From a virus (lineage: Duplodnaviria > Heunggongvirae > Uroviricota > Caudoviricetes), in the IMG/VR virus record IMGVR_UViG_2909303794_000003: a DNA stretch of 10,545 nt, one strand, 5' to 3'. Below, piece after piece: positions 2,633-9,602 of the stretch (position 1 is its first letter; each line of letters starts with the position of its first letter). A model generated the notes under the pieces. That model saw only the letters and a program-made list of their open reading frames with translations, had not been told where the DNA came from and searched no databases. The translations under genes were made by a program, and so were the position numbers.

Positions 2633-6220
<3,588 letters not shown>

Positions 6221-7176: not shown

Positions 7177-7184
7177 TATAAATA
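7177..7184 (+). promoter_or_regulatory. TATAAATA motif (T4-late-promoter-like, or a sigma70 -10 variant) 30 bp upstream of the 7214 start
   Basis: Exact TATAAATA in the short intergenic gap, followed by SD TAAGG (7201-7205) and ATG 7214. The same exact octamer occurs at 370-377 and 583-590 on the same strand. Confidence 0.25.
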
Positions 7185-7213: not shown

Positions 7214-7486
7214 ATGGATTTCGGTACTATTGTTGCTCTTGTTATCGCTGGCCTTGGTTTTCTTTATACGATATTCCGTGACAGTTCTTCTGATACTGAA
7301 GATTTACTCACGCGAGTTTCGCAAATTGAAGCAAAGATACAACTGCACAGTAGCAGTATAGACCGCCTCGAAACAGAGCAGGATGAAATGAAGAAGACAT
7401 TACGTAATCTCGAAGATCAAATTCATCAACTGGATTTGAAGATTGAGCGTATTCTGACAATTCTCGAAAAGACAAAAGGGGCATAA
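7214..7486 (+). CDS. membrane-anchored coiled-coil protein (90 aa); possibly lysis-associated (i-spanin-like or holin-like)
   Basis: One N-terminal TM segment (FGTIVALVIAGLGFLYTIF) followed by a heptad-like charged helix (QIEAKIQLHSSSIDRLETEQDEMKKTLRNLEDQIHQLDLKIERILTILEK). Sits next to the endolysin but on the opposite strand. Function is inferred from architecture only. Confidence 0.55.
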   Translation: MDFGTIVALVIAGLGFLYTIFRDSSSDTEDLLTRVSQIEAKIQLHSSSIDRLETEQDEMKKTLRNLEDQIHQLDLKIERILTILEKTKGA

Positions 7487-7503
7487 TGCCCCTTTGTTAT
7501 TTT
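7474..7503. terminator. bidirectional intrinsic terminator between convergent genes
   Basis: Stem GGGGC (7478-7482), loop ATAAT, GCCCC (7488-7492), followed by TTTGTTATTTT on the plus strand and preceded by AAAA (TTTT on the minus strand). It overlaps the stop codons of both convergent ORFs. Confidence 0.6.
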
Positions 7504-7940
7504 AATTGATTATTCATATCTCTTACCCGGTTTGGCGTTTGCCTGTACCATAATGAATCAACGGACTCACGCCGCACACCATCACGATCTCCCGCCTTTG
7601 CTGCTGCCAGTAGTTTTCTGAATTTACTTACGCCATTCACCCCTAACTGAAAAATCATGATGATCAGATAGTCCTCAATATCGGCAGGAAGAGTACCCAA
7701 ACGTAATGTACTTAATCCTGTCCGGGCAACTGCAATATCTTTATCAAGTAAAGTCTCTGCCTCATTCGGGGATAATCCAGTACTGAAAATTTCCCCTGAT
7801 TTGATTAAATGTCCATACCCGACAGTGCTGAATCCCAATGAGTCAGAGTATGGGAAGAACTTTCCATTACGGAAGTACCCCAATTTTGTCTGATAGGCAA
7901 TCGTGCCTTTATATTCCTTAAGTCTGCTTTTTAAATCCAT
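7497..7940 (-). CDS. endolysin, T4-type lysozyme (glycoside hydrolase family 24), soluble, no signal-arrest-release (SAR) domain
   Basis: PYSDSLGFSTVGYGH matches the phage lysozyme motif (P22 AYSDSRGIPTIGVGH, T4 YKDTEGYYTIGIGH). MIFQLGVNGVSKF and SLWYRQTPNRVRDM match T4 lysozyme MVFQMGETGVAGF and SRWYNQTPNRAKRV. No N-terminal hydrophobic segment. Confidence 0.85.
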   Translation of the reverse strand: MDLKSRLKEYKGTIAYQTKLGYFRNGKFFPYSDSLGFSTVGYGHLIKSGEIFSTGLSPNEAETLLDKDIAVARTGLSTLRLGTLPADIEDYLIIMIFQLGVNGVSKFRKLLAAAKAGDRDGVRRESVDSLWYRQTPNRVRDMNNQLK

Positions 7941-7981
7941 TCACTAAATACCTATATAAATTACATATGGGTATTTAGTGA
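7941..7981. promoter_or_regulatory. 12-bp perfect inverted repeat TCACTAAATACC / GGTATTTAGTGA around a 17-bp AT-rich spacer; candidate divergent promoter-operator
   Basis: Arms at 7941-7952 and 7970-7981. The spacer TATATAAATTACATATG contains TATAAATT. Each arm abuts the start codon of one of the two divergent genes (endolysin ATG ends at 7940 on the minus strand; plus-strand ATG at 7981). Confidence 0.4.
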
Positions 7982-8430
7982 TGAGAATTAATAACAACTG
8001 GACGATGTTCGAACCAGAACAATGGGATATCAAGGAAGTAAATGAAGGTCTGTACTGTTCATTTGTGTACTTAATTGAATTTCCCGAAACGGGGGAGTAC
8101 TACTTCGGGAAGAAGCAGATATATAAAGGTATCAAAGATATTTCAAACCTTAAGGGTACTTCAACGGAAAGCAACTGGCTGGATTATACGGGCAGCAGTA
8201 AAAGTGTAAATGCCATGATTGATTCAGGTATGGAGTACTCAAAAAGGATTCTGTACTGCTTTAAAACTGATGCTGAAGCCACTTTAATTGAAACTGCATT
8301 GATTAGCTATTACGGCTTACATCCCGACAATCTCAATAAAGCCATTCTGTGTAAATCCCGATTGCCAAAAAATCGAATTGAATTGTTCCGGGTGCTACAG
8401 AGTTTGATCGAAATGTTGGGCGTGAGGTAA
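7981..8430 (+). CDS. hypothetical protein (149 aa); weak GIY-YIG-like / T5orf172-like motif
   Basis: Track ORF 7978..8430 starts at a GTG; ATG 7981 is adjacent. GLYCSFVYLIEFPETGEYYFGKK resembles the G-[IVL]-Y ... Y-[IV]-G-K beta-hairpin of GIY-YIG-superfamily domains, but the spacing is longer than canonical and the downstream conserved Arg/Glu are not evident. Low-confidence motif call. Confidence 0.45.
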   Translation: MRINNNWTMFEPEQWDIKEVNEGLYCSFVYLIEFPETGEYYFGKKQIYKGIKDISNLKGTSTESNWLDYTGSSKSVNAMIDSGMEYSKRILYCFKTDAEATLIETALISYYGLHPDNLNKAILCKSRLPKNRIELFRVLQSLIEMLGVR

Positions 8431-8432
8431 AT

Positions 8433-9002
8433 ATGATTAGAGGCAGAATAACAGGGCTGAATAACGCAACAACCTATCTTAATACTACAGGTCAACGTCT
8501 TGGACGTGACTTTCAGAATGAAATAATCAAAAGGTCAAGGGCGTTATCAGCCAAAATGCAAATGGACTTAAACAATGCCGTCGATAAAGGAGCAGTACCT
8601 TTCACTCAGCGTTCCATTCTCTTTATGTACAAGAAAGTTGGTAATGGAGTTCGCAGTACTATTCTCGTGAAGGATCTACAAGCGAAGTACTTATATGACG
8701 TACTTGTTGAGGAAAAAGCCCTTGATAAGTTTGTACCAACGAGTAAGGCACGTCTTGATCGGTTCGGTAACATTGCAGGGTTGAAACGTAATCTATCAAA
8801 TGGGCGTTATAAGGTCATTAAAGGGAAGAATGGTAAAGAGCGATTGATTGATACCAGCCAGAAGAAGAAAGAAAAGCGAGTAATTGGATTACGTGAAAGT
8901 AAGAAACGTAAAATCATTTATGATTTCTATGCAGAAGCAGAGAAGGGGGCAAGACTTGTTCTCGCAGGGATACAGGGATCGTTTGTTATAAAAAAGGGAT
9001 AA
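8433..9002 (+). CDS. hypothetical basic protein (189 aa) with a Lys/Arg-rich C-terminal region
   Basis: SD GAGG 8 nt upstream; start is 3 nt after the previous stop. The C-terminal part (KGKNGKERLIDTSQKKKEKRVIGLRESKKRK) is strongly basic, suggesting nucleic-acid binding. The N-terminal 60 aa loosely resembles the HK97 gp10-like tail-component pattern (RAL...A...AVP...RS); unverified. Confidence 0.5.
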   Translation: MIRGRITGLNNATTYLNTTGQRLGRDFQNEIIKRSRALSAKMQMDLNNAVDKGAVPFTQRSILFMYKKVGNGVRSTILVKDLQAKYLYDVLVEEKALDKFVPTSKARLDRFGNIAGLKRNLSNGRYKVIKGKNGKERLIDTSQKKKEKRVIGLRESKKRKIIYDFYAEAEKGARLVLAGIQGSFVIKKG

Positions 9003-9003
9003 T

Positions 9004-9315
9004 ATGAATTTTGAAGAACACTATGGTGAACTTACGAGTGAGATAACGCTGAATGGTACTATACCAGATGGTAATAGTATGCCAATCAACAAGTGCTTTC
9101 TCGGAAAGAAGTTCCAGAAGCAATTGAAGAAAGCAGATATACAGATTGAGTGCTTTATGAATATCTGCTACGAGAAAAAACAAAGTTTTAAAGATGGTGA
9201 AGTACTCACATGGTCACTACAGGGTGATGAAATGGATGTGTACTTAATCGAAAGTAAAAGGTTATTTGTAAAGGGAAAGCACTTTTGGGGATATTGTGTG
9301 GGGATCATTGAATGA
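9004..9315 (+). CDS. hypothetical protein (103 aa)
   Basis: SD AAGGGA upstream; start is 2 nt after the previous stop; Cys-containing; no recognisable motif. Confidence 0.5.
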   Translation: MNFEEHYGELTSEITLNGTIPDGNSMPINKCFLGKKFQKQLKKADIQIECFMNICYEKKQSFKDGEVLTWSLQGDEMDVYLIESKRLFVKGKHFWGYCVGIIE

Positions 9316-9602
9316 TTGGAATGATAATTGATTTAATCAAAACTGGATTGGGCTTCTTCCAGAAAAAAGAACAAAGCAAACAGGAACTGGACGCACAGAA
9401 CAGTCACGAGCAGAACGAGATCACACTTGAAGAAACACGTAAGGGCTTCACGTGGCGACAGGGTTTAGGCTGGGTACTAACGTTCATCATTCTATGGAAC
9501 TACGTCATTGTGCCAGTACTGGCATTGTGTGGTGTAGTACTTCCCATAGTTCCACTTGATGAAATATGGAAAGTACTGATCATCTTAATCGGTGGGAGTT
9601 GA
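9312..9602 (+). CDS. small membrane protein (96 aa): hydrophilic N-terminal half, two C-terminal hydrophobic segments
   Basis: ATGA start/stop overlap with the previous gene. C-terminal GLGWVLTFIILWNYVIVPVLALCGVVLPIV and IWKVLIILIGG are predicted TM helices. The protein ends immediately after the last helix, unlike a typical holin with a charged C-terminal tail. Its 3' end overlaps the convergent minus-strand ORF by 18 bp. Confidence 0.5.
   Translation: MIGMIIDLIKTGLGFFQKKEQSKQELDAQNSHEQNEITLEETRKGFTWRQGLGWVLTFIILWNYVIVPVLALCGVVLPIVPLDEIWKVLIILIGGS

Follow-up and report, generated by a model that had tools for sequence, protein, structure and literature searches.

The inverted repeat that separates the divergent lysozyme and GIY-YIG genes of the DNA analysed here is probably, though by no means certainly, a two-way version of the control device known from T4 gene e and I-TevI, in which a hairpin sequesters a ribosome-binding site and carries a late promoter in its 5′ strand. 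The DNA, hereafter the window, is the whole stretch of 10,545 nucleotides from IMG/VR virus record IMGVR_UViG_2909303794_000003. We infer the use of the promoters, their start points, the dependence on a gp55-type factor, and the effect on translation from the sequence, the predicted RNA folds, and a comparison of related loci.

The lysozyme gene forms a single-gene transcription unit that ends at a bidirectional terminator (Table 1), and the same terminator closes the plus-strand operon of the tail genes and the XhlA-like gene. The lysozyme is 41-47% identical to the lysozymes of jumbo phages and 66-95% identical to the copies in relatives of the element. On the other side of the palindrome lies what the first-pass annotation had called simply the first operon gene. 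That position stands, and the gene is a homologue of the GIY-YIG nucleases (PF19835; 57.8 bits against a cut-off of 25), an identity that had been missed. The match of the 149-residue protein is restricted to the catalytic domain model. The 96-residue protein of the same operon has three predicted transmembrane segments and resembles a holin, with a weak match to PF11351. It is not obvious that the divergent operon is devoted to lysis alone.

Direct reading of the window shows that the left arm, TCACTAAATACC, and the right arm, GGTATTTAGTGA, are exact reverse complements. The left arm abuts the lysozyme start codon, a minus-strand ATG at 7940-7938, and the plus-strand ATG of the GIY-YIG gene, 7981-7983, shares its A with the final position of the right arm. 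The perfect 12-bp repeat touching both start codons, as first described, is thus exact in its coordinates and complementarity. Measured from CAT to ATG, the intergenic distance is 40 bp; the 37 bp given earlier stems from an in-frame GTG at 7978. The symmetry extends inward, where 7954-7957 pairs with 7965-7968 and positions 7953 and 7969 form a U-G pair in the plus-strand RNA, giving that RNA a full stem of 17 bp and a loop of 7 nt. A looser symmetry extends outward into both coding regions, with 30-nt arms (7928-7957 and 7965-7994) that are 80% complementary; in a repeat search, this palindrome at 7928-7994 is the longest inverted repeat of the window. Among 60 dinucleotide shuffles of the window, one contains a perfect inverted repeat of this size (12 bp or more, spacer no longer than 25 nt).

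Further copies of the 12-mer, which the first-pass annotation had thought worth seeking, are absent from the window beyond the two arms, and matches with one to three mismatches are at chance level. The 8-bp core TAAATACC occurs nowhere but in the repeat in 18 kb of the element. The palindrome is not an intrinsic terminator: its stem is A+U-rich, and it has no entry in the terminator scan. On the plus strand the bases 3′ of the stem are GAGAAUUAAU, and on the minus strand GGAUUUAAAA. An Rfam search returned generic hairpins only, all of them below threshold.

Table 1. Features of the window that bear on the palindrome and its neighbours; promoter and hairpin roles are predictions.
Feature	Position	Strand	Details
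Second copy of the design	370-452	plus	hairpin, 389-402 pairing with 430-443
Exact TATAAATA, predicted late promoter of the XhlA-like gene	7177-7184	plus	29 nt before ATG 7214
XhlA-like gene	7214-7486	plus	
Bidirectional intrinsic terminator, AAAGGGGCAT-A-ATGCCCCTTT	7475-7495	both	terminator scan, repeat search
T4-type lysozyme (endolysin) gene	7497-7940	minus	147 aa; PF00959, E 3e-8
Left arm, SD-to-AUG spacer of the lysozyme mRNA	7941-7952	minus	
Left arm, 5′ (anti-SD) hairpin arm of plus-strand read-through RNA	7941-7952	plus	
Left arm, predicted late promoter ACTAAATA of the GIY-YIG operon	7943-7950	plus	-13 to -6
AT-rich spacer, hairpin loop TATATAAATTACATATG	7953-7969		17 nt
Right arm, predicted late promoter ACTAAATA of the lysozyme gene	7979 down to 7972	minus	
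Right arm, start region of the GIY-YIG gene	7970-7981	plus	SD (GGG/GGT), spacer, first base of the AUG
SegE-like GIY-YIG domain gene	7981-8430	plus	149 aa; PF19835, E 1.6e-15
Rest of the divergent operon	8433-9602	plus	189-aa and 103-aa proteins (function unassigned), 96-aa holin-like protein

The predicted folds suggest what the repeat might do. On either strand, an RNA with both arms has a predicted fold of -24.7 kcal/mol (z scores of -5.8 and -5.6), with the SD and the AUG inside the stem, and the predicted late RNAs, at -1.6 and -0.5 kcal/mol, are unstructured. Among 33 distinct family members, the mean folds are -17.9 and -15.8 kcal/mol for the read-through RNAs versus -3.2 and -1.9 kcal/mol for the late RNAs. 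Of the ideas put forward in the first-pass annotation, structured translation initiation is the best supported, since the SD/AUG regions of both genes fall within one hairpin in the predicted folds. Leaderless initiation, also suggested there, gains no support: each AUG is preceded, at 8-10 nt, by an SD-like GGG or AGG, and leaders of 25-26 nt are predicted.

We propose that late transcription would start in the spacer, with +1 at an A on each strand (7956 on the plus strand, 7966 on the minus strand), as reckoned from the position of the -13 to -6 motifs. The late transcripts would have leaders of 25-26 nt holding the 3′ arm only, which would leave the SD and AUG free and the gene open to translation. 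RNA entering from outside, whether by read-through from the tail operon, from flanking cargo genes, or as antisense, would carry both arms; the 17-bp hairpin would then bury the SD and AUG, and the lysozyme or the nuclease would not be made. [quoted passage not shown] The two promoters would face each other, with predicted transcripts that overlap by 11 nt; for this reason, polymerases at the two sites are probably mutually exclusive.

The promoter assignment starts from the core of the arms. Both read cACTAAATAcc, and in each the ACTAAATA points across the spacer to the opposite gene. The late promoters of the T4 family consist of the 8-mer TATAAATA at -13 to -6, without a -35 element, and in T4 itself an A is present at -13 in 9 of 50 sites (PMC2988020; PMC7892883). 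Aeromonas phage Aeh1 uses the late-promoter variant (A/G)CTAAATA, that is, a/gC at -13/-12 (PMC2988020). The arms of the window carry the variant ACTAAATA, not the T4 consensus, and are an exact match to the Aeh1 form; in most relatives both arms contain nATAAATA.

The motif also stands singly before other genes. In 12 of 15 relatives it precedes the small-terminase ATG by 18-29 nt, in seven distinct contexts, and it is found upstream of several tail genes and of the XhlA-like gene. Where the lysozyme gene is co-directional with the GIY-YIG gene, the motif is 17-33 nt before the lysozyme ATG in 14 of 15 distinct loci, immediately after a terminator. In 127 kb of sequence from eight diverse elements, 19 of the 53 sense-strand copies of ATAAATA fall in the interval from -55 to -10, which makes up 3.7% of the sequence, and this enrichment upstream of starts is the highest of 21 composition-matched 7-mers. 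Sense copies outnumber antisense copies by 53 to 2, a bias that partly reflects an A-rich coding strand, other A-rich 7-mers being biased too. The 26-kb module at the head of the record of Escherichia phage DCP80 (see below) contains 16 exact copies of TATAAATA against 2.2 expected, a number that none of 100 shuffles reaches. In the window alone, the count of TATAAATA with one mismatch is not above chance; the signal arose in the comparative data only. Proteins like gp55 sigma, gp33, or the gp45 clamp were found neither among the genes of the element, searched with Pfam, PHROGs, and NCBIfam, nor in the flanking ORFs.

That two conventional promoters with -35 and -10 elements do not fit into the gap, as had been pointed out at the outset, is borne out by a scan with the sigma-70 consensus, which finds no promoter there, and by inspection, which finds no -35 element; the candidates of the scan lie inside coding regions, at 8210-8183 on the minus strand and 7886-7915 on the plus strand. 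The shared symmetric promoter that had been suggested instead is half right. The control region is common to both genes, but each arm would be a -10-only, T4-late-type promoter of its own, which had been overlooked.

A host sigma-70 promoter could still fire in both directions from the AT-rich spacer, with starts separated by about 18 bp, one at the inner end of each arm; the 5′ leader of either mRNA would then consist of one whole arm, and the two leaders would be identical. Hexamers resembling a -10 element, with A-11 and T-7, are present on both strands (TAAATT at 7957-7962 and TAATTT on the minus strand), relatives often carry GATAAT or TATGAT in the spacer, and bidirectional promoters built on -10 symmetry are known; Warman et al. 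reportedly found in 2021 that such promoters arise in this way. We hold this explanation to be distinctly unlikely, given that the consensus scan and the search for a -35 element came up empty in the gap, that the spacer is poorly conserved in sequence and in length (5-20 nt in relatives) while the arm core is invariant, and that the single copies of ATAAATA before terS, the tail genes, and the co-directional lysozyme genes would be left unexplained.

The palindrome is conserved in about 60 related prophage-like loci of the Enterobacteriaceae, with compensatory changes in the arms. The comparison covered 78 loci. Of these, 54 (33 distinct sequences) have the divergent arrangement, 6 belong to a group with a compact palindrome (the L049 group), and 17 have the lysozyme gene co-directional with the GIY-YIG gene and no palindrome between the two. 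All the divergent loci have the same layout, as follows: CAT, 0-4 nt, (A)TAAATA, a pyrimidine-rich SD complement, an AT-rich spacer of 16-20 nt, SD, TATTTA(T), 0-4 nt, ATG. Arm pairs that co-vary include AAATACCTCA/TGAGGTATTT, AAATACTCCA/TGGAGTATTT, ATAAATACCTTAT/ATAAGGTATTTAT, and AAATATTCC/GGAATATTT. At +1 to +4, the part of the stem adjacent to the core, C-G pairs in some loci are replaced by T-A pairs in others, and the SD variants of the inner arm change jointly, as in CCTCA/TGAGG, CTCCA/TGGAG, CCTTAT/ATAAGG, and TTCC/GGAA. Arms of the same locus agree at 7.35 of 12 variable positions versus 5.51 for arms taken from different loci, a difference that none of 20,000 permutations reached, kinship among the loci inflating the statistic.

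This pattern bears on the idea that the repeat is a scar left when a mobile GIY-YIG homing endonuclease gene inserted, or else a product of chance. The plus-strand gene does belong to the SegE GIY-YIG family, and AT-rich DNA easily yields short palindromes. The repeat is, however, conserved with covariation, and its length is met in only 1 of 60 shuffles, which makes this origin hardly credible. The scar in particular was rejected: the GIY-YIG gene is present in every relative, at the same position, and therefore is neither sporadic nor a recent homing insertion.

A subtler alternative is that the palindrome has no function of its own. Two late-type promoters that each overlap the SD-to-AUG spacer of the opposite gene would, through this double coding alone, already impose an inverted repeat of about 9 bp (ATAAATACC / GGTATTTAT). 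The hairpin would then regulate nothing, and the longer perfect arms would come from mutational homogenisation of quasi-palindromes; template-switch "correction" of such sequences could yield matching arms without selection. In keeping with this, the invariant portion of the arms is exactly the promoter core plus the SD complement, the outer-arm positions pair at only 32-65% across the family, and mismatches show no consistent strand preference. The type of mismatch (G-U vs. A-C) favours the plus strand in locus L048 and the minus strand in loci L008 and L055, and G-U pairing in relatives is not consistently favoured on one strand. Against it, the SD variants of the inner arm change together in both arms; in the co-directional loci, which have no divergent gene to impose double coding, an arm complementary to the SD or the AUG is still found at the promoter; a tight hairpin persists in the L049 group, whose left arm has ceased to be the lysozyme ribosome-binding site; and the terS site and the segment at 370-452 of the window repeat the design. 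We judge a mere by-product to be unlikely.

The same comparison speaks to the symmetric operator that the first-pass annotation had considered, on which a dimeric protein would bind both arms and co-repress both genes. Candidates for this protein would be a regulator from either the element or the host, and the GIY-YIG protein itself if it is an autorepressor like I-TevI, which represses its own late promoter through an overlapping operator (PMC2988022), and the perfect dyad does overlap both predicted promoters. But the distance between the cores (the AAATA...TATTT span) varies from 23 to 38 bp among relatives, a range that does not suit a rigid dimer and argues for a hairpin or for two independent sites. 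Moreover, the core motif also occurs singly, without a palindrome, upstream of other genes, the 12-mer and the 8-bp core are confined to the repeat, both in the window and in 18 kb of the element, no regulator gene was detected in the element, and the GIY-YIG protein matches the catalytic domain model only. The operator is, in our view, very improbable.

The compact palindrome of the L049 group (L049 and L060-L064, the group of Escherichia sp. ESNIH1), at about position 3960-4000 of the locus, reads ATAAATAATCC-TATAT-GGAGTATTTAT. It has an 11-bp stem and a 5-nt loop and adjoins only the start of the GIY-YIG gene, a GTG; the lysozyme start lies 14 nt away and has its own SD, and the ATAAATA cores are 19 bp apart, start to start.

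Hairpins of the proposed kind, with the promoter motif within or beside them, recur at other genes. The co-directional lysozyme loci have unrelated arms, such as TCTCCAT/ATGGAGA, TTCCTCC/GGAGGAA, and TCCTGCGAT/ATCGGAGGA, and about one-third of these loci are without a convincing hairpin. At the small-terminase gene, a hairpin in the group of locus L146 carries GATAAATA in its loop, with fold energies of -21.4 vs. -2.2 kcal/mol. In the window itself, a hairpin within 366-470 (-23.2 kcal/mol) buries the SD, AGGAGG, of an ORF at 446-625 that encodes a 59-residue membrane protein with two transmembrane segments, holin-like or toxin-like. A TATAAATA at 370-377 lies upstream of this second hairpin and a GATAAATA at 412-419 is in its loop; an 11-bp direct repeat, ATAAATAAGAC, starts at 371 and at 413. 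The left part of the window with this hairpin has no counterpart in the IMG/VR relatives, and in the endolysin region of DCP80 a comparable palindrome is absent.

The terS hairpin deserves a description of its own. It occupies positions 5027-5064 of L146 (IMGVR_UViG_2690316316_000011), occurs also in L149 and L164, and reads AGTCCTCCTGA-TAAATAAG-TCAGGAGGACT, followed by TTTTTT and the ATG, upstream of the small-terminase gene. It is terminator-like; its 3′ arm is the SD, and GATAAATA spans the 5′ arm and the loop. Such a hairpin could be a terminator combined with a translational lock before the first late gene.

A near-identity search of GenBank phages with the window gave no match. Many relatives are present in IMG/VR and GTDB, integrated in the chromosomes of Buttiauxella, Kluyvera, Pseudocitrobacter, Phytobacter, Pseudescherichia, Rouxiella, and Escherichia. 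In intact relatives the gene order is terS, terL, portal, protease-capsid, tail genes, a J-like tip protein, and the XhlA-like protein, followed by the block of lysozyme, GIY-YIG, 189-aa, approximately 104-aa, and holin-like genes, then by variable cargo and host DNA. The GIY-YIG gene has the same position in all the related loci, across several genera, with 40-98% identity.

The slot of the nuclease, 3′ of the genes for the tail tip and the XhlA-like protein, is itself conserved (7981-8430 in the window, 22959-23426 in L166, and 31438-31914 in L169). It holds a GIY-YIG gene in the window, an endonuclease VII gene in the DCP80 module, and, in E. coli MS 115-1, a gene for an "endonuclease domain" protein; in each case a homologue of the gene for the 189-aa protein comes next. 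This suggests that the nuclease is functional, perhaps debranching DNA before packaging, rather than a selfish homing enzyme. The copy in E. coli MS 115-1, a distant relative, lies between ybiT and ldtB and adds only a serine recombinase and defence cargo. At both ends of the elements (the flanks of L001-L008 and L146-L147, and 2216-14202 of L169), there is variable cargo typical of defence islands, as follows: DUF3800-like, KAP P-loop-like, HNH, and Hcp-like proteins, a TIR-domain protein, and a reverse transcriptase of the retron Ec67 type.

In the window, an IS3-family transposase pair (orfA, 1038-1448; orfB, 1406-2311) lies directly upstream of a tail-gene fragment, and its GC content is 0.49-0.56 vs. 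0.30-0.45 elsewhere. The fragment, an ORF at 2357-2632, covers just positions 272-361 of a 390-residue tail protein. Because this ORF is a remnant behind the transposase pair, the copy of the element in the window was evidently truncated on the left by the IS3-type element and is probably defective. The truncation also accounts for the finding that a walk leftward from the first ORF of the window turned up no relatives.

The element encodes heads, tails, and lysis genes, and no integrase, repressor, replication, or sigma genes were seen next to the structural module of the relatives. The terminase, tail, and lysis genes of the family all appear, as far as their upstream sequences indicate, to stand behind predicted T4-type late promoters. 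Since head, tail, and lysis genes are present and a late sigma factor was not detected, the late-transcription factor may be supplied in trans, possibly by a T4-like helper. A wider reading, which we offer tentatively and hold to be possible rather than probable, is that the window is one member of a family of integrated head-tail-lysis elements, about 25-35 kb long and widespread in the Enterobacteriaceae (Buttiauxella, Kluyvera, Phytobacter, Pseudocitrobacter, and Escherichia), that are silent until a T4-like phage provides gp55, gp33, and the clamp. The family would be a satellite, or a gene-transfer-agent-like parasite, of T-even late transcription, and the palindrome would be its safety catch against stray host read-through into the lysozyme and nuclease genes. 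In the literature, we found no description of a satellite or island with T4 late promoters.

Only one cultured relative, likewise the nearest to the structural module, came to light: the initial 26 kb of the record named "Escherichia phage DCP80", a T4-like coliphage. Labelled Straboviridae, this 141-kb record (PQ671644.1; L166-L168) has the look of a scrambled or chimeric sequence, with three rIIA genes, two primases, and duplicated gp46/gp47 and exonuclease genes, and it combines fragments of T4-like capsid, sheath, and fibre genes with the 26-kb lambda-like head-tail module. Such contents would fit the joint sequencing of a T4-like phage and an element of this kind, as co-purification with a helper would yield, and we take the record as a lead only.

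If the proposed device is real, a palindrome of 41 bp encodes four things, two promoters and two ribosome-binding sites, and allows two potentially toxic genes, a lysozyme and a nuclease, to be expressed only from the right promoter in both directions. It would be a compact case of dual coding combined with translational insulation against read-through. The mechanism of T4 gene e and I-TevI would then reach beyond the genomes of T4-like phages, and a family of phage-like chromosomal elements would be wired to a late-transcription system that it does not itself encode. A dependence of this family on T-even helpers would be directly testable.

The nearest known system is gene e of T4, where a hairpin blocks translation of the long early transcripts and late transcription starts inside the hairpin (McPheeters et al. 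1986, reviewed in PMC3014915). The late promoters of gene e lie in the 5′ strand of the hairpin, and the late transcripts, which lack that strand, are translated (PMC3014915). As in gene e, the gene concerned here is a T4-type lysozyme gene, with a hairpin that buries the SD and AUG and a late-type promoter, both of them predicted here, in the 5′ strand. [quoted passage not shown]

Hairpins that sequester a ribosome-binding site and contain a late promoter have also been described for I-TevI, I-TevII, I-TevIII, segB, and mobE of Aeh1 (PMC2988022). The SegE-like GIY-YIG gene resembles these homing endonuclease genes of the T-even phages, with its SD and AUG in the 3′ arm and a predicted late-type promoter in the 5′ arm. 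In contrast to them, it is conserved, syntenic, and at the head of an operon, not sporadic, and its position is held by the endonuclease VII gene in the DCP80 module and by the "endonuclease domain" gene in E. coli MS 115-1.

The predicted promoters themselves are like the T4-family late promoters in being 8-mers of the TATAAATA type, without a -35 element, in many copies before structural and lysis genes, on either strand. They differ from the T4 promoters read by gp55, gp33, and the clamp in that the element has no detectable homologue of gp55, gp33, or gp45, and recognition of the gp55 type is what we would expect from the motif. There is also a likeness to the sigma-70 promoters with -10 symmetry attributed to Warman et al. 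in 2021, in that a compact, symmetric, AT-rich region would drive divergent transcription. In those promoters, the two -10 hexamers are said to overlap and the transcripts to diverge back to back, whereas the predicted -10-type elements here are 22 bp apart and face each other, with leaders that overlap by 11 nt. The lock of T4 gene e and I-TevI is thus a mechanism of an already known kind; what we infer to be new is its bidirectional form, doubly dual-coded, and its presence in a chromosomal element outside the T4-like genomes.
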